From a virus: 64,000 bases of DNA. The position numbers and the translations under genes were made by a program. The stretch spans positions 1 through 64,000 of IMG/VR virus record IMGVR_UViG_3300037541_000632, one strand, 5' to 3'. Positions 1,101 to 32,971 of the stretch are shown one piece after another (the first letter of the stretch is position 1; each line of letters starts with the position of its first letter). The notes beneath the pieces are model-generated. The model searched no databases. It saw nothing but the letters and a program-made list of their open reading frames with translations, and had not been told where the DNA came from.

Positions 1101-1175
1101 TGGTCGAGAGACCAGGACTCGAACCTGGACTTGCAGTACGTCTACTCATGTTCTGACCTCTTAAACTATCTCTCG
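1101..1175 (-). tRNA. tRNA-like RNA with aberrant anticodon arm (pseudo-tRNA or decoy)
   Basis: Perfect acceptor CGAGAGA/TCTCTCG, A73-CCA end, T-arm CCAGG-TTCGAGT-CCTGG and D-arm; the anticodon arm is mismatched and lacks U33. Confidence 0.6.
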
Positions 1176-15007: not shown

Positions 15008-15082
15008 TGGCTCCCAGAGTAGGGCTCGAACCTACGACCTAATGGTTAACAGCCATCCGCTCTACCGCTGAGCTACCCGGGA
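15008..15082 (-). tRNA. tRNA-Asn(GTT)
   Basis: Cloverleaf, anticodon GTT, encoded CCA. Confidence 0.93.
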
Positions 15083-15666: not shown

Positions 15667-16609
15667 ATAATCTGATGTTGCCTGAAGCAAGCTCAAACTT
15701 ATAATTCATATACGTCTGAGTAATTCCTTCTTCAAGTTTTATCTTTGGACTCCAGCCAATATATCTCATTCTACTAGAATCCATGATTTTACGCATAGTT
15801 CCGTCAGGCTTACTGCTGTCAAAGTTAATGGTGCCTTTAAAACCAACAGTAGATGCAATTAACGTAGCTAGGTCCTTGATACTAATGTCAGAACCATAAC
15901 CGACATTATAAATATATTGGCATGTGGTTAGCTCCATTAATAGTTTACAAGCTTTCGCCAGATCATCTACATGTAGGAACTCGCGCATGGGCGCGCCCGT
16001 ACCCCACAGAGTAACTGTGTCTTCTTTTCTAATATACTGAGAAGCCTCAAAGAATCTGCGAATTAATGCCGGGAGTACGTGACTAGTTTCTAGATTATAG
16101 TTATCTCCCGGACCATACAGGTTGCATGGCATAAGCGCTAGATATTCCAATCCCTTAGCCTTGCGATAATACTCACAGAGTTTTACACCGCATATTTTAG
16201 CCAGGGCATAAGCTTCATTAGTCTTCTCCAAAGGACCAGCAAGTAAATCAGCTTCAGAAATAGGACGATCAAATCCTTTTGGATAAATACAGGAGCTGCC
16301 AAAATAAATTAATTTAGGTACATTGTATTTAGCTGCAGTGTTAATACAGTTGTTAGCAATGGCCATGTTGTCTGTAAAGAATTCTACAGGGTTATTAGCA
16401 TTAGCTAAAATACCTCCAACTTTACCTGCAGCCACAATCACAGCCTGGATAGGCCCTTTGTATTTAAAGTAATAATCTACAGCTTGTGCATCGCACAAAT
16501 CAAGTTCCTGCCTCGTGGGTGCAAGCACATGATATTTTGTTTCATTGTTAAGCAATCTATGAATTGCTTTACCTACCATTCCATTAGCGCCTAATAACAG
16601 TACAGTCAT
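15665..16609 (-). CDS. fcl: GDP-L-fucose synthase
   Basis: GANGMVG, AGKVGGILAN, GSSCIYP, YALAK, PCNLYGPGDN, SHVLPALI, REFLHVDD and KPDG motifs. Confidence 0.95.
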   Translation of the reverse strand: MTVLLLGANGMVGKAIHRLLNNETKYHVLAPTRQELDLCDAQAVDYYFKYKGPIQAVIVAAGKVGGILANANNPVEFFTDNMAIANNCINTAAKYNVPKLIYFGSSCIYPKGFDRPISEADLLAGPLEKTNEAYALAKICGVKLCEYYRKAKGLEYLALMPCNLYGPGDNYNLETSHVLPALIRRFFEASQYIRKEDTVTLWGTGAPMREFLHVDDLAKACKLLMELTTCQYIYNVGYGSDISIKDLATLIASTVGFKGTINFDSSKPDGTMRKIMDSSRMRYIGWSPKIKLEEGITQTYMNYKFELASGNIRL

Positions 16610-16671
16610 AGTAATTTAAGTTTATTGTGTGTCCTTTAGCTTTGCATTAGTAACAGCATAAGCAATAGATA

Positions 16672-16712
16672 AAAATAATATCCGGACGCTGCATCGCTGC
16701 AGCGCCCGGATA
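16672..16712 (-). terminator. intrinsic terminator
   Basis: TCCGGGCGCTGCA/TGCAGCGTCCGGA hairpin followed by a T-rich tail on the - strand. Confidence 0.65.
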
Positions 16713-16724
16713 TATCTGTCAGTA

Positions 16725-16895
16725 TTAATAAATTTTTTCGATCTTAGCTACTTCTTCCCTCATCTTTTCATTAGAGGAAACAGTGTTGGCAAAATCAATC
16801 ATCTTATCACGAATATCATTGAGTTCCTCGCGGGTATAATCCCACGTATCTTCAAGATCTTGAATGTGGCGTTCTAGTTCTTTAGTCGCGGACAT
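16725..16895 (-). CDS. small coiled-coil protein (56 aa, not in ORF track)
   Basis: MSATKELERHIQDLEDTWDYTREELNDIRDK...; overlaps the upstream stop. Confidence 0.55.
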   Translation of the reverse strand: MSATKELERHIQDLEDTWDYTREELNDIRDKMIDFANTVSSNEKMREEVAKIEKIY

Positions 16896-17223
16896 TGCGT
16901 TTGGACATTTCGAAGTAATCGAATTCCTGCGCGATGACCAGCTCCCATTCCCCGGGAGGAACGGTTAGCGTGTCATGCCGCTCTGCGATAACACAACGTA
17001 CCTCTGCTGGCACGGAGTTACGCAAGAAGCGCTTGTTATCTTTCTTTAGAACCTCAACGCCAGGAAGGACATCGAGCACATGGTGGTTGCCGGTGGTTTC
17101 ACTATCAGCGATAATCAGACAGTTGTTCTCCACTTTGACAGGTGTAGCGTCAGCAGGGATTTTGGACTGAATGATTCCGCACTCGCCGTGGAGGATTGCT
17201 TTAGCTGCTTTAACGTTTTTCAT
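16882..17223 (-). CDS. His-containing cupin-like partner of DUF6745-like protein
   Basis: HGE...SETTGNHH...HDT...PPG.W....QEFD...R.V.D resembles the QGDV/GExTGHxH/HEEH/QREY family; start moved to MKNVK. Confidence 0.65.
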   Translation of the reverse strand: MKNVKAAKAILHGECGIIQSKIPADATPVKVENNCLIIADSETTGNHHVLDVLPGVEVLKKDNKRFLRNSVPAEVRCVIAERHDTLTVPPGEWELVIAQEFDYFEMSKRNVRD

Positions 17224-17308
17224 GATGTGGTGTGGTGTGTTGTGTACTTGGTACTGTTGTTTGTTTATTTGCAGAAGGAAAGCGGTTTTTATTCCTCTTT
17301 CCAAAATT

Positions 17309-18346
17309 TTAAGCGACGCCAACGATTTCTACGTTACGACCATAACGATCTTCTAACGCAGCTTCAATGGTTTTGCAACTAGGAGACACAGCCTCGACAT
17401 GCCAGATCTTTGTGGTCTGATTTAGCATCTTAAGGTGCGGCGCATAGTCGACATTAGGAAAGAGCGACTGCATATCCCAAAGCTCATACTCAGATTTGGT
17501 GTACCACTCGTCATTGTATGATGTATGAGAATCCACTTTTTTACCCATTTCAAGCAAACGCTCAACACCGATTTTGCGAACAAACTCGGCTTTAATGTCG
17601 GCATTCTTGATTTCGTGAATCCGCTCCACTGGAATTTTCTGCGCAGGAGTGACTGCGAGCCACTCTGGTACAGTCACGCCGTTGAGAGCGAAAATCTTAA
17701 TGTCGCCGTAGCCTTCATACACGACAGCAGGTCCGCCGTCGCAGTGAATAACACCAGCATCATTGAGTTTAACCAGAGATGGCTTCTCAGAAACAATGCA
17801 CATGTCCTGCACAGTGCCGGTGACGCCATGAATTGGGTAAATCAAACCAAGCTCTGTAGTAGTCTTCCAGATCTCGTAAAGTTCATCAACGCTGAGCTTA
17901 GACTCGTTTTTGGCCGCGTTGTCTACAGGTGTTCCGGTAGTTTCCAACGCAATTCCAAGTTCATACTTGAAGAAGTCGTAGAAAGCAAAGGTCGGAGCCG
18001 AGAACGAACCATTAAGATAAGGGGAAACATATTGTGTAAGTTTCCATTTCGGTCTTTTACCATTAAAGAAGTCGTCTACGCATTTCTTCAGCTCATTGAT
18101 TGCATGGCCGTGAGCTGCATAGTTACAAGCAACCCAAGCTTCCATCGGGTTGTTGAATATGATAACAGGAGTAGGCTCCTTATTAAGAATGTGACGCTGG
18201 ACATTTTGAATAATGTCTAGCGTACGATCATAGTTGAGACGTGCGGTATCATTACCAATCTTTATCCACTTAGCGACATACTCAGGCATTTTAGCTTTCT
18301 GCTCAGGAGTAAGTTCGGCGATCTTTTCTTTAATTTTGTTTTCCAT
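17309..18346 (-). CDS. DUF6745-like protein
   Basis: LTPEQ...KW..IG N-terminus, AFYDFF, SEKP...IHCDGGPAVVY...LNGVTVP, I.NA..K....KIG motifs. Confidence 0.75.
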   Translation of the reverse strand: MENKIKEKIAELTPEQKAKMPEYVAKWIKIGNDTARLNYDRTLDIIQNVQRHILNKEPTPVIIFNNPMEAWVACNYAAHGHAINELKKCVDDFFNGKRPKWKLTQYVSPYLNGSFSAPTFAFYDFFKYELGIALETTGTPVDNAAKNESKLSVDELYEIWKTTTELGLIYPIHGVTGTVQDMCIVSEKPSLVKLNDAGVIHCDGGPAVVYEGYGDIKIFALNGVTVPEWLAVTPAQKIPVERIHEIKNADIKAEFVRKIGVERLLEMGKKVDSHTSYNDEWYTKSEYELWDMQSLFPNVDYAPHLKMLNQTTKIWHVEAVSPSCKTIEAALEDRYGRNVEIVGVA

Positions 18347-18394
18347 GTTGAGTGTCTTTCAGTTTTATTGTTGTTTATATGTTATTAGTAGCGA

Positions 18395-19498
18395 TTAGCT
18401 TACGCCATAAGCGAAGGCACGATAGTCTAATACAGTTTCTGTAACCTTAGCTTGAAGTTTAACACTTTCTCCCTTGCTGTTCTTGAACACGAAGGTTTTA
18501 CCATCCTTACTGGCAGACACCAGATCGGTAGGAATAAATTCTGCGGTGACAAAGTCAGAATCATTATCTTCGTGATTTTTATCAATGTCAGTACGCTTAT
18601 ATTTATGATAGTAAATTTTAATACGATCACCCATAGGTTTACCAACAAAGTCACCGTTAGTAACGACATGCGTGTCAGGATAACCGGCAACACTGATTGT
18701 GGCGGTATAAGTATTTGAATCCTCGTACTCAGGCTTGATGTTAAGTAGACTAATAGCCTCAAACGGATCTTCGTTGAAGCGATTCATTTCCTCGACTAGG
18801 GCCTGTAGCATATCAAAATTAAAGGCGCTGAATAGCGTCTTTATACGAACGATATGATCGATTTGCGATTTATCGTTCAAATTGTCTTCGCAGTATTCAC
18901 GAATGAACTGCTCCTCAATGCCTTTGTAGTCGATGGAATAGAAGATACGCCCGGGACGGTTGCGCATGTTAATATCCAACTTCCACTTGTCATTGACGGT
19001 GAAAACATAAAGCTTGTTGGTAGGGTAAATACCATCCAACAAAGTGAGAACTTCCTTTTGCTTCTCCATGTCATAAACCTTTTCGAACTCATCGAAAAGA
19101 ATAACAGCAGGCTGTTCGATCTTTTGTAGCATATTGAAGAACGCATCACCTACGCGCGGGGTGTTAATAACAATCACAGGGAAATCTTTTGCCTGCGCAA
19201 AGCACGCCAACGTTTTAGCCAGCAAAGACTTACCGGAACCCTTTTCACCGCATAGAAGGACACCTGTAGCTGTATTTCTTTTTTCGTAGCTATACAAAAT
19301 ACGCTCGGCATATTTATCATTATGCCCGTACCTCTTTTGAGGTATATTAAAATTATCGATTTTCTCCAGCATGAGCTCCTCTGTTATCGGGTGCGCTCGA
19401 ATAGAATAAACTGCCGGAGGAAGCCTATCTTTAAAATTCATTAATTCCGGGTCGCGTAGAAGAACTGTACTGCCTTGGATACTAAAGATTGTGGACAT
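18395..19498 (-). CDS. AAA+ ATPase
   Basis: Walker A GEKGSGKS, Walker B ILFDEFEK, RPGR arginine finger; start moved to MSTIF. Confidence 0.9.
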   Translation of the reverse strand: MSTIFSIQGSTVLLRDPELMNFKDRLPPAVYSIRAHPITEELMLEKIDNFNIPQKRYGHNDKYAERILYSYEKRNTATGVLLCGEKGSGKSLLAKTLACFAQAKDFPVIVINTPRVGDAFFNMLQKIEQPAVILFDEFEKVYDMEKQKEVLTLLDGIYPTNKLYVFTVNDKWKLDINMRNRPGRIFYSIDYKGIEEQFIREYCEDNLNDKSQIDHIVRIKTLFSAFNFDMLQALVEEMNRFNEDPFEAISLLNIKPEYEDSNTYTATISVAGYPDTHVVTNGDFVGKPMGDRIKIYYHKYKRTDIDKNHEDNDSDFVTAEFIPTDLVSASKDGKTFVFKNSKGESVKLQAKVTETVLDYRAFAYGVS

Positions 19499-19523
19499 TG
19501 TGCTTTTAATTTTGGTGTGTGGT

Positions 19524-19922
19524 TTAAGCCGGAACAAATTTCTTAACTGCTAGCTTTTCTACTTCACTAAATGGACGGTTCTCTTTACCGAACCTATAAT
19601 CCGTCTCATGAAGAATATATAAATTACAATTCAAGTCATTAGCGACTTGTTGTAGTTTTTCAGAATCGTCTGCTAGATCCAAATCTCCCCACCAAATTTT
19701 ACCTTGGTCAGTGACCACATTAGCATTGAATACTGCTTGGTTGTTTGGTCTTTCAGATATGTACATACTTTTGCTAGAAGCAATCATTCGAGATAACTCG
19801 AATCCATGTTTCCGCATTACTTTTAATTCTGTGGCATGCCTCTGTGTTACTTGCGTAACTTCTGCATGAAATTCTTCATTCTGAGATTGCATATTTTTAT
19901 TCTGCGATTGCGTCTTTTTCAT
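19524..19922 (-). CDS. hypothetical protein
   Basis: ORF with FNANV...KIWWGDLDL motif. Confidence 0.7.
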   Translation of the reverse strand: MKKTQSQNKNMQSQNEEFHAEVTQVTQRHATELKVMRKHGFELSRMIASSKSMYISERPNNQAVFNANVVTDQGKIWWGDLDLADDSEKLQQVANDLNCNLYILHETDYRFGKENRPFSEVEKLAVKKFVPA

Positions 19923-20202
19923 TTATCAAATCATACCATTCTTTTGGAATGTCTACTACCTGATCGGTAACTAAAGCTGATCCATTGTCTTTGTCTATTT
20001 GTTCGATTGCGCGTTTCAAGTAAATAGCCTTATCAAGAGTTTCCTCGTAGGCATGCTGCAACCACTGTTTTAAAGACAAATCATTGTCTCTCACAGTGCT
20101 ATTATATTTTTTAATACCCATTTGTTGTCTGCGAGAAATATCTGCATGAAATTCTTCATTCTGAGATTGCATATTTTTATTCTGCGATTGCGTCTTTTTC
20201 AT
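19897..20202 (-). CDS. chimeric ORF built from pieces of three neighbouring genes
   Basis: N-terminus from 19524-19922, middle from 20571-20831, C-terminus from 20177-20632. Confidence 0.5.
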   Translation of the reverse strand: MKKTQSQNKNMQSQNEEFHADISRRQQMGIKKYNSTVRDNDLSLKQWLQHAYEETLDKAIYLKRAIEQIDKDNGSALVTDQVVDIPKEWYDLINEKDAIAE

Positions 20203-20632
20203 TTATCAAATCATACCATTCTTTTGGAATGTCTACTACCTGATCGGTAGTAACATAAAAAACTGAAGTTATCGCGGGCATAGCAGATTCAAAAACTTCT
20301 TGTAAAAGAAGCAGCACTTCTACAACACCCGCAGTTGAAGCGAAATACTGAACTCTACTCTCCGCTGGAAAAAGAAGAGTGAATATTTTAGTATCTGACT
20401 TAAATTTATTAGCTGCCTTAGCGGCGGCTTGCGCATTAGTTTTCTCTGCGTCCTTAGCTAAGATGGCTTGTTGCTTCAAGTCAGCAATACTAGCTGAAAT
20501 CGCCATATACTCAGCCACCCTAGCCTTCTTAATTTCTTTAGTCGGAGAAGAATTAATATCTGAATTGATTTTAGCTGCTCTTGCTTTCAGAGCCACTAGC
20601 TTGTGATTGATGGTAACTAAAGCTGATTCCAT
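20177..20632 (-). CDS. hypothetical protein
   Basis: 151 aa ORF. Confidence 0.65.
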   Translation of the reverse strand: MESALVTINHKLVALKARAAKINSDINSSPTKEIKKARVAEYMAISASIADLKQQAILAKDAEKTNAQAAAKAANKFKSDTKIFTLLFPAESRVQYFASTAGVVEVLLLLQEVFESAMPAITSVFYVTTDQVVDIPKEWYDLINEKDAIAE

Positions 20633-20831
20633 TGTCTTTGTCTATTTGTTCGATTGCGCGTTTCAAGTAAATAGCCTTATCAAGAGTTTCCTCGTAGGCA
20701 TGCTGCAACCACTGTTTTAAAGACAAATCATTGTCTCTCACAGTGCTATTATATTTTTTAATACCCATTTGTTGTCTGCGAGAAATATCTGCACAAACAT
20801 CCGCCTCAGTACCAATAACATTTATTTCCAT
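20571..20831 (-). CDS. conserved phage helical protein
   Basis: R...GIKKY...WLQHAYEE.LD.AIYL motif; likely start MEIN. Confidence 0.7.
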   Translation of the reverse strand: MEINVIGTEADVCADISRRQQMGIKKYNSTVRDNDLSLKQWLQHAYEETLDKAIYLKRAIEQIDKDNGISFSYHQSQASGSESKSS

Positions 20832-20883
20832 GGTGCGCGTGTTATACAATTGGCTTTGCATTCACGCAATACCAAAGTGTAAA

Positions 20884-21264
20884 TTATACGTTAGCGTTGT
20901 ATACCTTGAGTATGTTATTAGCCAATACACGACAAGATTCACGGTCACGATTAAATGTACCGTCTGATCTTTTAGGCGAAGCTATAAGAAGTAAAGTAGA
21001 TTCATATTCAGCTAACTGCGCTCTAAGATCTTTAATCTTAGTTTCTAGCGTTGTAACTAAATTCTTACTTATCTTTTTGTTTATACTTTTATCGCTAATT
21101 TTTGATATAATTTTTTTGTCGCACCATTCATCGTGTTTAGCGATAGGATCTTCTTCTGAACAAGTACACCAAGCACACTGACGTGCATTAGTGGTAGGTA
21201 CGGTTTTTTTATTAGAGACAGAGAATGACTGTCCTAGCGACTTTGGTATATCTAATCCATTCAT
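20884..21264 (-). CDS. hypothetical protein
   Basis: ORF with CxxC..H...C. Confidence 0.6.
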   Translation of the reverse strand: MNGLDIPKSLGQSFSVSNKKTVPTTNARQCAWCTCSEEDPIAKHDEWCDKKIISKISDKSINKKISKNLVTTLETKIKDLRAQLAEYESTLLLIASPKRSDGTFNRDRESCRVLANNILKVYNANV

Positions 21265-21436
21265 CTTTTGTAGATTGTTCTAGCTCATTCCATTTTCTGC
21301 GTTCCGGGTAAACCTTGGACCAGATTATTTCGGCCATAAGTTCCAGGTCTTGAATATCAGTAAGGGTGGTTTCACAACACTCACGATCTGTACAATCATA
21401 AGGTGTCGGACAATTTTGGCATGTGATAAAAAACAT
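21212..21436 (-). CDS. small Cys-rich protein
   Basis: CQNCPTPYDC...CC. Confidence 0.55.
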   Translation of the reverse strand: MFFITCQNCPTPYDCTDRECCETTLTDIQDLELMAEIIWSKVYPERRKWNELEQSTKDEWIRYTKVARTVILCL

Positions 21437-21638
21437 TATGTGTTAAGGTTATCCTCAAAAAACTTATCCTCAAAAAATCATTTACATTATAAAATGTGCG
21501 TCTGAAAGTATGGTTCCAAATATGCGCGCGGAAACCAATATCACACAGAGAATTAATGCGTTTATTAAATTCTAAATGACAGCACGCATTATGCACGTCG
21601 CTCATTAATCTGTCATATACATGGGCTTCAAGTGTCAT
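21396..21638 (-). CDS. degenerate terminal member of SVxx array 1
   Basis: Starts MTLE at the same 11-nt junction but the repeat is eroded. Confidence 0.55.
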   Translation of the reverse strand: MTLEAHVYDRLMSDVHNACCHLEFNKRINSLCDIGFRAHIWNHTFRRTFYNVNDFLRISFLRITLTHNVFYHMPKLSDTL

Positions 21639-21831
21639 ATGATTCAATTAGTTTATCAATTTTGTTGTAAACATCTCTGCAAAAAGAATAACGAAAATAA
21701 TGCTGAACAGAGTCATCAACAGAATCAATAACAGAATTACGAACAGATTGCCGAGCAGAATTAAAAACAGAATTTAAAACAGAATTCCAAACAGAATCAT
21801 AAACATTATAAACAGAAGCTTCAAGTGTCAT
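21628..21831 (-). CDS. SVxx-repeat protein (array 1 unit 11)
   Basis: MTLE...SYDT; 11-nt overlap. Confidence 0.7.
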   Translation of the reverse strand: MTLEASVYNVYDSVWNSVLNSVFNSARQSVRNSVIDSVDDSVQHYFRYSFCRDVYNKIDKLIESYDT

Positions 21832-22039
21832 ATGATTTCATTAGATCTTTGATTGAATTATATACAGAATTATAAACAGAATCCCAAACAGGCTTACAAA
21901 CAGAATTACAAACAGAACTACGAACAGAATTATGAAAAGAATTATGAAAAGAATTAAAAACATAATTATCAACATAATTCCAAACATAATTATCAACATA
22001 ATTACAAACAGAATCACAAACAGATTCTCTAAGTGTCAT
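21821..22039 (-). CDS. SVxx-repeat protein (array 1 unit 10)
   Basis: MTLR...KSYDT. Confidence 0.7.
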   Translation of the reverse strand: MTLRESVCDSVCNYVDNYVWNYVDNYVFNSFHNSFHNSVRSSVCNSVCKPVWDSVYNSVYNSIKDLMKSYDT

Positions 22040-22247
22040 CGGATTTAATTAGGTTATAGACAGAATCACAAACAGAATTATAAACAGAGTCTTTAATAGA
22101 ATCCCAAACAGAATGACGAACATAATCCCAAACAGAATTATAAACAGAATAATAAACAGAATTATAAACAGAATCCCAAACAGAATTATAAACAGAATCA
22201 CGAACAGAATTATAAACAGAATCACGAACAGAATCTTTAAGTGTCAT
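22029..22247 (-). CDS. SVxx-repeat protein (array 1 unit 9)
   Basis: MTLK...KSDDT. Confidence 0.7.
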   Translation of the reverse strand: MTLKDSVRDSVYNSVRDSVYNSVWDSVYNSVYYSVYNSVWDYVRHSVWDSIKDSVYNSVCDSVYNLIKSDDT

Positions 22248-22467
22248 GAGATTTAATTAGGTTACAGACAGAATCCCAAACAGAATCCCAAACAGAATGA
22301 CGAACAGAATTCCAAACAGAATACTGAACAGAATTATTAACAGAATTCCAAACAGAATAATAAACAGAATACTGAACAGAATTATCAACAGAATTCCAAC
22401 CAGAATTATGAACAGAATTATCAACAGAGTCACGAACAGAATTATAAACAGAATATTCAAGTGTCAT
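22237..22467 (-). CDS. SVxx-repeat protein (array 1 unit 8)
   Basis: MTLE...KSHDT. Confidence 0.7.
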   Translation of the reverse strand: MTLEYSVYNSVRDSVDNSVHNSGWNSVDNSVQYSVYYSVWNSVNNSVQYSVWNSVRHSVWDSVWDSVCNLIKSHDT

Positions 22468-22651
22468 GTGATTTAATTAAGGTGTGAATTGAATTATAAA
22501 CAGAATCTTCAACAGAATCCCAAACAGAATCCCGAACAGAATTAAAAACAGAATCATAAATAGAATCATAAATAGAATCATAAACAGAATCCCAAACAGA
22601 ATTAAAAACAGAATTCCAAACAGAATTATAAACAGAATCTTTAAGTGTCAT
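22457..22651 (-). CDS. SVxx-repeat protein (array 1 unit 7)
   Basis: MTLK...KSHDT. Confidence 0.7.
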   Translation of the reverse strand: MTLKDSVYNSVWNSVFNSVWDSVYDSIYDSIYDSVFNSVRDSVWDSVEDSVYNSIHTLIKSHDT

Positions 22652-22883
22652 ATGATTTCACTAGGTCTTTGACTGAATTATATACAGAATCCCAAACAGA
22701 ATCCCAAACAGAAATATCAACAGAATCCCGAACAGAATTATAAACAGAATCCCAAACAGAATCCCAAACAGAATTATAAACAGAATCCCAAACAGAATTA
22801 TCAACAGAATCAAGAACAGAATCCCAAACAGAATTACGAACAGAACTATGAACAAAATTATAAACAGAATCTTTAAGTGTCAT
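22641..22883 (-). CDS. SVxx-repeat protein (array 1 unit 6)
   Basis: MTLK...KSYDT. Confidence 0.7.
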   Translation of the reverse strand: MTLKDSVYNFVHSSVRNSVWDSVLDSVDNSVWDSVYNSVWDSVWDSVYNSVRDSVDISVWDSVWDSVYNSVKDLVKSYDT

Positions 22884-23091
22884 GAGATTTAATTAGATCT
22901 TTAATTGAGCTATAAACAGAATCCCAAACAGAAATATCAACAGAATCCCGAACAGAATTATAAACAGAATCCCAAACAGAATTATAAACAGAATCCCAAA
23001 CAGAATTATCAACAGAATCAAGAACAGAATCCCAAACAGAATTACGAACAGAATTACGAACAGAATTATAAACAGAATCTTTAAGTGTCAT
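22873..23091 (-). CDS. SVxx-repeat protein (array 1 unit 5)
   Basis: MTLK...KSHDT. Confidence 0.7.
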   Translation of the reverse strand: MTLKDSVYNSVRNSVRNSVWDSVLDSVDNSVWDSVYNSVWDSVYNSVRDSVDISVWDSVYSSIKDLIKSHDT

Positions 23092-23299
23092 GTGATTTAA
23101 TTAGGTTGGTAATTAAATTATAAACAGAAACGCGAACAGAGTTATTAACAGAATCAGAAACAGAGTTATAAACGGAATCAACAACAGAATCAACAACAGA
23201 ACCACGAACAGATTTATGAACAGAGTGCCGAGTAGAATTTAAAACAGAATTCCAAACAGAATTCCAAACAGAATTATAAACAGCGTGGTCAAGTGTCAT
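23081..23299 (-). CDS. SVxx-repeat protein (array 1 unit 4)
   Basis: MTLD...KSHDT. Confidence 0.7.
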   Translation of the reverse strand: MTLDHAVYNSVWNSVWNSVLNSTRHSVHKSVRGSVVDSVVDSVYNSVSDSVNNSVRVSVYNLITNLIKSHDT

Positions 23300-23471
23300 A
23301 TGATTTCACTAGGTCTTTGATTGAATTATATACAGAATCCCAAACAGAATCCCAAACAGAATTATAAACAGAATCCCAAACAGAATTATCAACAGAATCA
23401 AGAACAGAATCCCAAACAGAATTACGAACAGAATTACGAACAGAATTATAAACAGAATCTTTAAGTGTCAT
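23289..23471 (-). CDS. SVxx-repeat protein (array 1 unit 3)
   Basis: MTLK...KSYDT. Confidence 0.7.
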   Translation of the reverse strand: MTLKDSVYNSVRNSVRNSVWDSVLDSVDNSVWDSVYNSVWDSVWDSVYNSIKDLVKSYDT

Positions 23472-23667
23472 GTGATTTAATTAGATCTTTAATTGAGCTA
23501 TAAACAGAATCATGAACAGAAATCCGAACAGAGTCACGAACAGAATTATGAACAGAAACACAAACAGAATCCCAAACAGAATTATGAACAGAATTATGAA
23601 CAGAATTCCAAGCAGAACTATGAACAGGCTTACGAACAGAATAATAAACAGAATATTCAAGTGTCAT
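23461..23667 (-). CDS. SVxx-repeat protein (array 1 unit 2)
   Basis: MTLE...KSHDT. Confidence 0.7.
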   Translation of the reverse strand: MTLEYSVYYSVRKPVHSSAWNSVHNSVHNSVWDSVCVSVHNSVRDSVRISVHDSVYSSIKDLIKSHDT

Positions 23668-23875
23668 ATGATTTCACTAGGTCTTTGATTGAATTCCAAA
23701 CAGAATACTGAACAGAATTCCAAACAGAATTATTAACAGAATTCCAAACAGAATTCCAAACAGAATAATAAACAGAATCCCAAACAGAATTATCAACAGA
23801 ATCAAGAACAGAATCCCAAACAGAATTACGAACAGAATTACGAACAGAATTATAAACAGAATCTTTAAGTGTCAT
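23657..23875 (-). CDS. SVxx-repeat protein (array 1 unit 1)
   Basis: MTLK...KSYDT; ATGA overlap with the upstream gene. Confidence 0.7.
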   Translation of the reverse strand: MTLKDSVYNSVRNSVRNSVWDSVLDSVDNSVWDSVYYSVWNSVWNSVNNSVWNSVQYSVWNSIKDLVKSYDT

Positions 23876-24444
23876 GCGCTTATCCAGTCAGGTTTATTCT
23901 GTATCCACTTATGTAAGTGCTGTTTACCTGCTATGTAAAAATTACGATAGGCCTGCACCGAGTCTTCGCATTTAAATTCATCAGGCATCGCCTGCGCAAA
24001 TTCCGTTATAGATCCTTCAGGTACAAGACTATGCTGTAAATTTAGTTGAACCCAATTAATAAAAGGAATGCAGAAATGCTGTGCGGGCGCGCTATTAACA
24101 ATATCCGGGGCGTGAGGCTTACCTTCCTCTTTTAATTTAAGCAGCTCTTGTGCTTTCAGCCTATAACGCTGAATTCTTTCTGTATCCATGGCAAATGCAT
24201 GTGCAATTAACCACCTCATATTCTCCCGGGATACGCGGACCCATTTACTGCAGGGATGGTTGTAATGCGCGTATTTACGCACTGTACCTGCCTGAGTCCT
24301 AGGACAAGTCTCGTCAGCCAACTGCTCCGGTGAAAAGCAGTTGGCTAACATCTGAGCAGATTCCAATACCATTTTCACGACATGGGAATCTACAAGGTGT
24401 CTCGCCGACTTGACGGGGCACCTGTAAATTGCGAAGATATTCAT
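23872..24444 (-). CDS. pyrimidine-dimer DNA glycosylase-like protein
   Basis: MNIF...HVVKM.LESAQML...HYNHPCSKW...QAMPD...AYR.FY family pattern. Confidence 0.75.
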   Translation of the reverse strand: MNIFAIYRCPVKSARHLVDSHVVKMVLESAQMLANCFSPEQLADETCPRTQAGTVRKYAHYNHPCSKWVRVSRENMRWLIAHAFAMDTERIQRYRLKAQELLKLKEEGKPHAPDIVNSAPAQHFCIPFINWVQLNLQHSLVPEGSITEFAQAMPDEFKCEDSVQAYRNFYIAGKQHLHKWIQNKPDWISA

Positions 24445-31132: not shown

Positions 31133-31427
31133 ATTTATTTACTTTATCTACCATGCGCGCGTGCATGGCTTCAGCGTCTTTCCATCCACCAGAGCAGCGA
31201 TCTTGCTCATGATGAAGTTCTCCTCCAAAGACCATGGTCTCCCAAAGAACAGGAGGCCCATCACCAAAGCTATGGTCCAGTCCAAGGAATACTGTGGAGA
31301 CTTCCACACCATCAATCTTGTCAAAGGCAACACGACGCTTACTGATCGCAGCCATCCATGTTCCCCATTTAAGTAAATCAGGTTCTACTACGGGATTTTT
31401 GTTTTCGTCTAGAATGTATTTATTCAT
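31119..31427 (-). CDS. conserved phage hypothetical protein
   Basis: VSTVFLGLDH.F...PP.LWETMVFGG motif. Confidence 0.75.
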   Translation of the reverse strand: MNKYILDENKNPVVEPDLLKWGTWMAAISKRRVAFDKIDGVEVSTVFLGLDHSFGDGPPVLWETMVFGGELHHEQDRCSGGWKDAEAMHARMVDKVNKYEKD

Positions 31428-31671
31428 AATTATTTACTTTGGTTTTAAGCTTATTGTTAATAATGCTCTTCACCGATTTGTAGGCAGAATTATCAACAGA
31501 ATCCCAAACAGAATCCCAAACAGAGTCTTTAATAGAATCCCAAACAGAATTATAAACAGAATGACGAACAGAATCCCAAACAGAATACAAAACAGAATTA
31601 CGAAAAGAATCCAGAACAGAATTCCAAACAGAATTATCAACAGAGTCACGAACAGAATCTTCAAATGTCAT
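31420..31671 (-). CDS. SVxx-repeat protein (array 2 unit 8)
   Basis: MTFE...; divergent C-terminus. Confidence 0.7.
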   Translation of the reverse strand: MTFEDSVRDSVDNSVWNSVLDSFRNSVLYSVWDSVRHSVYNSVWDSIKDSVWDSVWDSVDNSAYKSVKSIINNKLKTKVNNYE

Positions 31672-31867
31672 ATGCTTTTATTAGTGTGTTAATTGAATTA
31701 TCAACAGAGTAACAAACGGGCTTACAAACAGGCTTACAAACAGAGTTAAGAACAGAAGACCAAACAGAATTATAAACAGAATCACGAACAGAATACAAAG
31801 CAGAAGACCAAACAGAATTATAAACAGAATCACGAACAAAATCCCGAACAGAATCTTCAAGTGTCAT
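31661..31867 (-). CDS. SVxx-repeat protein (array 2 unit 7)
   Basis: MTLE...KAYDI. Confidence 0.7.
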   Translation of the reverse strand: MTLEDSVRDFVRDSVYNSVWSSALYSVRDSVYNSVWSSVLNSVCKPVCKPVCYSVDNSINTLIKAYDI

Positions 31868-32087
31868 ATGCTTTTATTAGGTTGGTAATTGAATTATAAA
31901 CAGAATCTTCAACAGAATCATAAATAGAATTCCAAACAGAATTACGAACAGAATCCCAAACAGAAATATCAACAGAATAATAAACAGAATAATAAACAGA
32001 ATTATAAACAGAATCCCAAACAGAATTATAAACAGAATCACGAACAGAATCCCAAACAGAATCCCGAACAGAATCTTCAAGTGTCAT
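31857..32087 (-). CDS. SVxx-repeat protein (array 2 unit 6)
   Basis: MTLE...KAYDT. Confidence 0.7.
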   Translation of the reverse strand: MTLEDSVRDSVWDSVRDSVYNSVWDSVYNSVYYSVYYSVDISVWDSVRNSVWNSIYDSVEDSVYNSITNLIKAYDT

Positions 32088-32271
32088 ATGCTTTTATTAG
32101 GTTGGTAATTGAATTATAAACAGAATCCCAAACAGAATCCCGAACAGAATTATAAACAGAATGACGAACAGAATCCCAAACAGAATCCCGAACAGAATTA
32201 TCAACAGAATCCCAAACAGAATTATAAACAGAATAACAAACAGAATACAAAGCAGAATGCTCAAGTGTCAT
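32077..32271 (-). CDS. SVxx-repeat protein (array 2 unit 5)
   Basis: MTLE...KAYDT. Confidence 0.7.
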   Translation of the reverse strand: MTLEHSALYSVCYSVYNSVWDSVDNSVRDSVWDSVRHSVYNSVRDSVWDSVYNSITNLIKAYDT

Positions 32272-32467
32272 ATGATTTCATTAGATCTTTGATTGAATTA
32301 TATACAGAATCCCAAACAGAATTATCAACAGAATCCCAAACAGAATGACGAACAGAATCCCAAACAGAATCCCGAACAGAATTATCAACAGAATCCCAAA
32401 CAGAATTATAAACAGAAGTACAAAAAGAGGCACGAACAAAATAATAAACAGATTCTTCAAGTGTCAT
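32261..32467 (-). CDS. SVxx-repeat protein (array 2 unit 4)
   Basis: MTLE...KSYDT. Confidence 0.7.
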   Translation of the reverse strand: MTLEESVYYFVRASFCTSVYNSVWDSVDNSVRDSVWDSVRHSVWDSVDNSVWDSVYNSIKDLMKSYDT

Positions 32468-32567
32468 ATGCTTTTATTAGATTGGTGATTGAGTTATAAA
32501 CAGAATCTTCAACAGAGTCCCAAACAGAATTATTAACAGAAATACGAACAGAATCTTCAAGTGTCAT
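32457..32567 (-). CDS. SVxx-repeat protein (array 2 unit 3, 36 aa, not in ORF track)
   Basis: MTLEDSVRISVNNSVWDSVEDSVYNSITNLIKAYDT. Confidence 0.7.
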   Translation of the reverse strand: MTLEDSVRISVNNSVWDSVEDSVYNSITNLIKAYDT

Positions 32568-32763
32568 ATGCTTTTATTAGGTTATACACAGAATTATAAA
32601 CAGAATTATAAACAGAAACACGAACAGAATTACCAACAGAACGCCAAACAGAAATATTAACAGAATTACTAACAGAATCCCAAACAGAATTATCAACAGA
32701 ATTCCGAACAGAATTACGAACAGAATCCCAAACAGAATTCCAAACATATTCTTCAAGTTTCAT
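32557..32763 (-). CDS. SVxx-repeat protein (array 2 unit 2)
   Basis: MKLE...KAYDT. Confidence 0.7.
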   Translation of the reverse strand: MKLEEYVWNSVWDSVRNSVRNSVDNSVWDSVSNSVNISVWRSVGNSVRVSVYNSVYNSVYNLIKAYDT

Positions 32764-32971
32764 AGGATTTTATTAGATTGGTGATTGAATTATATACAGA
32801 ATTATAAACAGAAACACGAACAGAATTACCAACAGAACGCCAAACAGAAATATTAACAGAATAATAAACAGAACTTTGAACAGGATTACTAACAGAATCA
32901 TTAACAGAATCAAGAACAGAATTACAAACAGAATTAAGAACAGGATCCCAAACAGAAGCTTTAAGTGTCAT
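32753..32971 (-). CDS. SVxx-repeat protein (array 2 unit 1)
   Basis: MTLK...KSYET; start moved to the conserved ATGACACTTAA. Confidence 0.7.
   Translation of the reverse strand: MTLKASVWDPVLNSVCNSVLDSVNDSVSNPVQSSVYYSVNISVWRSVGNSVRVSVYNSVYNSITNLIKSYET

Follow-up and report, generated by a model that had tools for sequence, protein, structure and literature searches.

A Repeat-Less DUF6745 Protein and Two Arrays of Free-Standing SVxx Mini-Genes in a Viral Contig: A Candidate Split System

The Question Raised by the Locus

The stretch of DNA analysed here (the window) comprises the 64,000 nucleotides (nt) at positions 1 to 64,000 of IMG/VR record IMGVR_UViG_3300037541_000632, a 101-kb viral contig that is around 56% complete. 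It encodes a protein resembling the DUF6745 family (PF20530), many members of which carry an internal tract of four-residue repeats, and, on the same strand, two arrays of short overlapping mini-genes built from repeats of this very type, Ser-Val-x-x (SVxx), in which the last two positions (x1 and x2) vary. The question is whether the tract missing from the DUF6745-like protein, here called the scaffold, now resides in the arrays, and whether the mini-proteins encoded there return to the scaffold in trans. An earlier note on this DNA had proposed such a split system, with the variable module outsourced to an exchangeable library of peptides. The proposal finds support in the genomic and modelling evidence, the binding itself being a prediction.

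The elements on which the argument turns are the following:

17309–18346, minus strand: the scaffold, a repeat-less DUF6745 homologue of 345 amino acids (aa), recognized by profiles of its flanks and by PF20530 at 25.3 bits
21628–23875, minus strand: array 1, 11 overlapping SVxx mini-genes of 60–80 aa, defined by open reading frames (ORFs), alignment and profile search
31420–32971, minus strand: array 2, 8 SVxx mini-genes defined in the same way, including a 36-aa unit at 32457–32567

A profile search of the whole 101-kb record returned exactly 19 mini-gene units and one DUF6745 match, so that the initial estimate of about 19 free-standing repeat copies becomes an exact count (11 + 8).

Identity of the Scaffold

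The PF20530 model gave the window protein 25.3 bits (25.9 in a second run), short of the gathering cut-off of 27, and the match was confined to profile positions 46–130 of 206. The scores of close relatives are uneven (42 bits in locus L028, 23 bits in L034 and 19 bits in L003). As the cut-off is narrowly missed, the window protein was placed in a phage subfamily as a divergent homologue. Clearer evidence came from flank profiles, built from the non-repeat parts of 103–115 Pfam-positive repeat-bearing proteins. The C-domain profile (103 proteins from P0121–P0240) matched the scaffold with an E value of 9.1e-36, and the N-segment profile with 5e-12. Furthermore, phrog_31813 matched at 1.5e-8, and the N-terminal segment LT.EQ ... 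KW..IG ... P.I...P is colinear in the window scaffold, ahead of the tract position. The scaffold has 257 homologues of near-equal length, most of which, at 45–94% identity, are flagged PF20530 in precomputed data.

On this profile and alignment evidence, the product of 17309–18346 is confirmed as a true but divergent DUF6745 homologue across both flanks, and the DUF6745-like call of the earlier note is borne out with the Pfam score itself below the cut-off. The family is large: an exhaustive profile search yielded 6639 cluster representatives (50% identity) at E<=1e-3, 609 of them reaching E<=1e-30. Nothing on DUF6745 or its partner, described below, was found in the literature searched. The AlphaFold2 (AF2) model of the scaffold has a predicted local distance difference test score (pLDDT) of 90.7. 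When it was compared with solved folds, Foldseek gave no match at E<=0.001 and the best VIA Z score was 3.6; such an absence of matches to a predicted model neither reveals a function nor proves a new fold.

The Tetrapeptide Tract in Homologues and Its Absence from the Window Protein

The search of one mini-gene against longer proteins produced 1399 matches, the best 120 of which were almost all PF20530 proteins of 390–570 aa. These repeat-bearing proteins are built from about 75–95 N-terminal residues, 100–250 residues of tetrapeptide repeat and a C-domain of about 200–230 residues, with a Y-G-Q-H/W-L-A-F-Y-D-F-F helix directly after the tract and before the C-domain. Residues 1–2 of each repeat unit are fixed (SV, QV, NI and others), while residues 3–4 are variable.

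In the alignment, tracts of 100–165 residues, of the QVxx (L034), NIxx (L042) and SVxx (P0214 and P0137) types, lie between an NP.EAW segment and the PY..GSF...FYDFF helix. At this position, between about residues 76 and 106, the window scaffold has a 30-residue non-periodic filler running from NPMEAW to PYLNGSF, and the L028 protein has about nine residues. The presence of SV- and QV-type repeats inside DUF6745 homologues, as stated in the earlier note, proved correct at exactly the interval that had been indicated, and so did the repeat-free state of that interval in the window protein. Among the best 150 representatives of the phage-type subfamily (P0241–P0390), around 52 carry the tract and around 98 do not.

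Tract length in this subfamily is continuous, ranging from 0 through a few units (proteins of 300–340 aa) to more than 60 units. The internal flavour seen most often is QVxx, in 27 of the 52 tract-bearing representatives.

Tracts of the SVxx type were also observed in a third family of 250–330 aa, unrelated to DUF6745, in which the tract is central (L202:9605–10366, L216:5818–6576 and L190:9419–10399); three tandem paralogues occur in L201:9632–11905. Its N-domain is weakly DUF7666-like (E 0.0015), and its C-domain bears the motif D-L-W..G-L-x-P-S-F-D-G-K-x-W-R-L-H. Because this family carries the SVxx tract too, the tract appears to be a module common to at least two unrelated scaffolds.

Organisation and Sequence of the Mini-Gene Arrays

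The mini-genes encode 60–83 aa of Ser-Val-x-x units, besides the single 36-aa unit, and overlap one another. All 19 units have their own ATG and an in-frame stop, with an 11-nt overlap between start and stop, and none contains an internal stop or a frameshift. The retention of start, stop and frame in every unit argues for translation.

The codons of the fixed residues are almost invariant. Ser is encoded by TCT in 178 of 179 repeat units and Val by GTT in 178 of 179, compared with 34% (TCT among Ser codons) and 41% (GTT among Val codons) in the other genes of the window. Across the repeat units, 15 different residues occur at x1 and 10 at x2. This pattern fits a 12-nt unit that is homogenised and shuffled at the DNA level, with variation kept at two exposed codons, and the frozen silent sites of the Ser and Val codons suggest that the homogenisation is recent. 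Furthermore, the flavour of the mini-genes tracks that of the nearest fused (tract-bearing) relative: the mini-genes of L028 are QVxx, like the tracts of the fused L002 and L034, and the others are SVxx. It is very probable that the mini-genes descend from a DUF6745 tract.

Several other features of the arrays were recorded. At the downstream end of array 1, an 83-aa ORF (window 21396–21647, minus strand) starts with the mini-gene head M-N-H-M-T-L-E-A-H-V-Y and loses the SV periodicity thereafter; its appearance is that of a decayed unit. Long open I-L-F-x, N-R-I-x and K-Q-N-x frames run through the arrays in other frames and on the opposite strand (e.g., 21841–22017, 22113–22256 and 22905–23084); they are by-products of the 12-nt periodicity and not gene calls. 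A second mini-gene design, with the head M-N-K-I-N-D-(S/A)-V and the tail S-V-(R/K)-D-Y-F-x-x-K, occurs in L006/L148, L012/L158 and L092, and lineage-specific heads or tails were seen in L014 (V-Q-N-F-N-K-P-L), L021 (F-M-x-D-Y-E-Y) and L028 (I-R-N-E-L-T-K).

The phage also encodes a tRNA-Ser(AGA), which reads TCT, and a tRNA-Asn(GTT), at window positions 1101–1175 and 15008–15082. Asn is the commonest x2 residue in the repeat units. These tRNAs could supply the translation of the arrays, or their presence could be a coincidence.

Co-Distribution of Arrays and Repeat-Less DUF6745

The relationship between the two elements was examined in both directions. The alignment of the repeat-less subfamily retrieved 43 viral loci, most of which have mini-genes no more than 10 kb away on the strand of the DUF6745 gene, in many cases immediately downstream. 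The loci L014, L016/17 and L021 have them between the DUF6745 gene and the gene of its partner. In the reverse direction, a mini-gene query retrieved 79 viral loci, including eight true arrays. Seven of these eight have a repeat-less DUF6745 within 10 kb, and none has a fused one. The remaining loci comprise around 35 with a fused DUF6745 and no array, and around 37 (of the 79) with the third SVxx family.

When an array was scored as present if at least three mini-genes lay on the same strand within 10 kb, and distinct genes were counted, an array accompanied 22 of the 34 repeat-less DUF6745 genes (12 had none) and none of the 38 fused genes. On the C-domain tree, eight changes between the repeat-less and fused forms are required, and well-supported branches force five of them. 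Array-bearing repeat-less lineages (L243, with 45 units; L218, with 39; L231, with 9; and L251, with 14) are nested within groups of fused ones, and the fused L002, L034, L213 and L042 lie inside or beside the large repeat-less clade. The earlier note had asked whether arrays and repeat-less DUF6745 are distributed independently across genomes; the gene counts, the tree and the reverse query all point to an association.

A scan of viral contigs for TCNGTN with a period of 12 found mostly plain microsatellites, and true arrays only in L092, L148 and L158. Two of these are on contigs already found via DUF6745, and the third is on a contig (23% complete) without a DUF6745 match.

The 113-aa Partner and the Conserved Two-Gene Unit

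The gene immediately downstream of the scaffold encodes its most constant neighbour:

16882–17223, minus strand: His-rich all-beta partner of 113 aa, phrog_27831 family; the ORF can be extended to a TTG at 17322

The frame is open over 16882–17322, and homologues place the start at the ATG at 17223, which gives 113 aa. Of 43 phage-type viral loci, around 40 have a homologue of the partner next to DUF6745, as do 26 of roughly 31 loci in bacterial genomes and metagenome-assembled genomes (MAGs) of many phyla. It also adjoins fused DUF6745 in viral loci. Distant members of the family match phrog_27831 at around 1e-18; searches of PHROG and Pfam with the window copy gave no match. The invariant residues are G13, H48, H83, G91, V111 and the C-terminal D113, the protein ending in V-x-D.

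The AF2 model of the partner is all-beta, with nine strands and a pLDDT of 89.6. It had no Foldseek match at E<=0.001; the highest VIA-align Z was 3.2, and no cupin was among the structures listed. A sequence profile search of the PDB found nothing under E 0.2, and a search of the protein atlas returned only viral hypothetical clusters. Hence, of the previous description of this protein as His-containing and cupin-like, the abundance of His stands and the cupin label is unconfirmed. Judged by gene order, the conserved unit is DUF6745 plus the 113-aa His-rich beta protein of the phrog_27831 family. Among GenBank phages, megablast of 16000–24000 and tblastn of both proteins gave no match, in searches where the low-complexity filter may hide a mini-gene.

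Predicted Docking of the Mini-Protein on the Scaffold

Complexes were modelled with three chains, namely the scaffold, the 113-aa partner and a mini-protein (the scored chain), each with its own-built alignment. The interaction prediction score from aligned errors (ipSAE) came to 0.82, 0.82 and 0.76; none of the three controls exceeded 0.00. The mark applied is attained by 58 of 80 solved complexes and by 2 of 110 mismatched pairs, in a calibration set-up from which our own alignments and third chain differ, a departure that counts against taking the scores at face value. The pLDDT of the scored chain was 80–83, and contact agreement between runs was at least 46%.

The tightest contacts connect the invariant V51, V55, V59 and S54 of the mini-protein with Y23, V24, W27, I28 and A117–F125 of the scaffold. 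These scaffold elements are the two helices that border the tract in the fused homologues. The i, i+4 spacing of the contacts fits a helix with x1 and x2 facing outward. The complex model lists no confident contact of the mini-protein with the 113-aa partner. The model supports binding of the mini-protein to the scaffold, and the multimer prediction advised in the earlier note thus gives a predicted docking that passes its controls.

Neighbouring Genes

Three further elements surround the two-gene unit:

18395–19537, minus strand: AAA-type ATPase of 380 aa (PF00004 at 34 bits; phrog_2376 at 1e-87)
16725–16895, minus strand: ORF of 56 aa, overlapping the end of the partner gene by 14 nt; an open frame with no family match
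16678–16713, minus strand: hairpin and T-run resembling an intrinsic terminator, 3´ of the 56-aa ORF, with 16 pairs (9 GC) and a 4-nt loop

The ATPase score exceeds the PF00004 cut-off of 21.2, and the 56-aa ORF had no match in the Pfam or PHROG searches. The ATPase starts 2.1 kb downstream of the end of array 1, both on the minus strand. Because nearly all genes of the window lie on this strand, the shared orientation is barely informative. The ATPase, DUF6745-like protein, partner, 56-aa ORF and terminator that had been reported near array 1 were all located, on the minus strand.

A place for the ATPase and the 56-aa ORF in the conserved unit was not supported. The arrangement of the ATPase, the 56-aa ORF and an upstream 132-aa ORF is shared only with a 79%-identical relative (the L003/L226 contig), and a homologue of the 56-aa ORF was found only in this closest relative, L003 (E 6.9e-15). 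Both genes are lineage-specific neighbours, and the ATPase was ruled out by synteny as a member of the conserved unit.

Genomic Context and Comparison with Known Systems

Two cellular loci were examined. In Mycobacterium parascrofulaceum (L270), the module has Ant, RecE and RecT to one side of it and, to the other, HNH and a replication initiator. In a Dehalococcoidia MAG, its flanking genes encode a primase-polymerase and a DNA methyltransferase. These are settings of phage-type early or accessory genes. The notion that the peptides mimic or inhibit a host DUF6745 is therefore unlikely, since the two cellular copies lie among phage-type early genes.

On one 2.64-Mb contig of the Dehalococcoidia MAG, the module of fused DUF6745 and partner occurs three times (L257, L258 and L268), with identical partner scores and differing DUF6745 open frames (502–765 aa), which points to a prophage or mobile element present in several copies, with tracts of unequal length.

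The closest known relatives of the window system are the tract-bearing DUF6745 proteins themselves (PF20530; phrog_31813; e.g., P0137, P0214, L034 and the M. parascrofulaceum prophage copy). They share with it a homologous N-segment and C-domain, a phrog_27831-type neighbour, the repeat chemistry (S, Q or N followed by V or I and two variable residues) and a phage or prophage accessory setting. Unlike them, the window protein is tract-free, and the tract is encoded apart 19 times, with its own starts and stops.

Tetrapeptide repeats have been described in the mycobacteriophage proteins Tweety gp54, Che8 gp57 and PMC gp51, in which unique termini surround 15–48 repeats (PMC2884959, PMC9262239). 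Tweety gp54 has 48 Ala-Ala-x-x repeats with invariant silent positions, its gene is non-essential and lies among early genes, and changes in its repeat number lead to escape from the Phrann gp29/gp30 defence (PMC2884959, PMC9262239). As in the DUF6745 tract, two fixed and two variable residues, frozen silent sites and flanking unique regions are combined. In contrast to the window system, the repeat of gp54 is in cis, there is no phrog_27831-type neighbour, and detached mini-genes have not been described for it. Searches with gp54 (L253:1145–2269) gave no Pfam match and none to the canC, canN, phA2, micro and p146 profiles used for DUF6745 and its partner. By these searches, Tweety gp54 is an analogue and not a DUF6745 homologue, and by analogy it suggests a role in conflict.

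A further parallel is VR2 in the bbp36 of Bordetella phage BMP-1, which, as discussed in PMC2884959, is a short tandem repeat of variable copy number in a non-essential phage gene, like the DUF6745 tract; as described there, it differs in having a 24-bp unit and in belonging to another protein. The literature searched contained no description of detached DUF6745 repeat mini-genes.

Proposed Explanation and Alternatives

The locus may be explained as a two-gene phage accessory module in which DUF6745 usually carries a hypervariable tract between its N-terminal helix and the F-Y-D-F-F helix. In this phage lineage, the tract would have been lost from the scaffold gene by fission and would survive as 19 free mini-genes in two arrays. 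Each mini-protein would dock in trans on the repeat-less scaffold, with its Ser-Val stripe against the two tract-bordering helices, and the variable x1 and x2 would stay exposed, allowing one scaffold to present many alternative surfaces. The likely arena would be phage–host or phage–phage conflict, as suggested by the Tweety gp54 analogy and the two cellular loci. As a whole, this re-docking of detached tract mini-genes on a repeat-less DUF6745 is the explanation we favour, with slightly more confidence than doubt. The docking step, which derives from the model, is likewise considered somewhat probable. A counter-defence or recognition role is put forward tentatively, by analogy, at a little below an even chance.

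Several observations weigh against this explanation, and many of them agree with an alternative in which the mini-genes descend from the tract and their products act alone, for instance as unattached decoys or as proteins that bind the same target, adjacency to DUF6745 reflecting origin without docking. In the window, the arrays lie 2 and 12 kb from the scaffold, with unrelated genes between. The 12 of 34 repeat-less genes that have fewer than three mini-genes within 10 kb amount to one third of the set, and three repeat-less contigs of 106–136 kb (40–53% complete) are without any array. The modelled interface is not enriched in conserved positions (16/81 vs. 57/264, p = 0.88), and no clear covariation was seen between groove residues and repeat flavour. 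Because fused proteins are abundant, the model may simply echo their cis arrangement, and thus reflect resemblance instead of binding in trans. Given the third family, the tract is, by sequence, not exclusive to DUF6745, and since fused tracts range from a few to about 60 units, the scaffold seems to tolerate tract absence. Finally, the p value of 3e-10 obtained by Fisher's test of array presence against DUF6745 form is inflated by locus ascertainment and shared ancestry, and the independent pairs, of which 4–5 out of 5 go in the same direction and none in the opposite one, are a sample of five that cannot reach p = 0.05. Even so, action of the mini-proteins on their own is thought unlikely. 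It would not predict the complete absence of fused DUF6745 genes beside arrays (0/38), the mini-genes are wedged between DUF6745 and partner in several phages, and the complex model passes, with controls at 0.00, through the invariant face of the repeat.

It could also be argued that no protein is made, and that the arrays are silent DNA cassettes, or slippage-prone 12-nt repeats, recombining into repeat-bearing genes. The near-uniform TCT and GTT codons would agree with this, and so would the openness of the other frames and the opposite strand, which follows from periodicity. However, the individual ATG, in-frame stop, 11-nt overlap and unbroken frame of 19 out of 19 units speak for coding, many phages share this organisation, each lineage with its own heads and tails, and the profile search revealed no repeat-bearing acceptor gene in this genome, so that silent cassettes are very unlikely. 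As for the possibility that the ATPase, DUF6745, the partner and the 56-aa ORF form one ATP-driven machine, with the ATPase loading or exchanging peptides, the four genes are indeed close-packed on one strand with a strong terminator after them, but it is only in the 79%-identical relative that DUF6745 is joined by the ATPase and the 56-aa ORF, whereas the partner is found with it in nearly all phage-type loci and most cellular ones; such a machine is very improbable.

Biological Meaning

DUF6745 is a large phage and prophage family, and its tract is similar to Tweety gp54, the one tetrapeptide-repeat protein of phages that has been studied. If the mini-proteins re-dock on the repeat-less scaffold, as favoured here, this would be a new viral route to vary a binding surface while the scaffold gene remains unchanged, and a natural two-part system that is readily tested by co-expression. 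It would also give a role to many of the unexplained tiny tandem ORFs of large phage genomes.

In a broader and more speculative form, about which we have distinctly more doubt than belief, phages would have repeatedly split a hypervariable helix out of one accessory protein and multiplied it into a set of mini-proteins, each able to return to an unchanging scaffold. One core with tens of exchangeable surfaces would then serve the combinatorial recognition, at the protein level, of fast-evolving host or rival-phage targets. If true, this would represent a diversification principle separate from diversity-generating retroelements, shufflons and cassette recombination.

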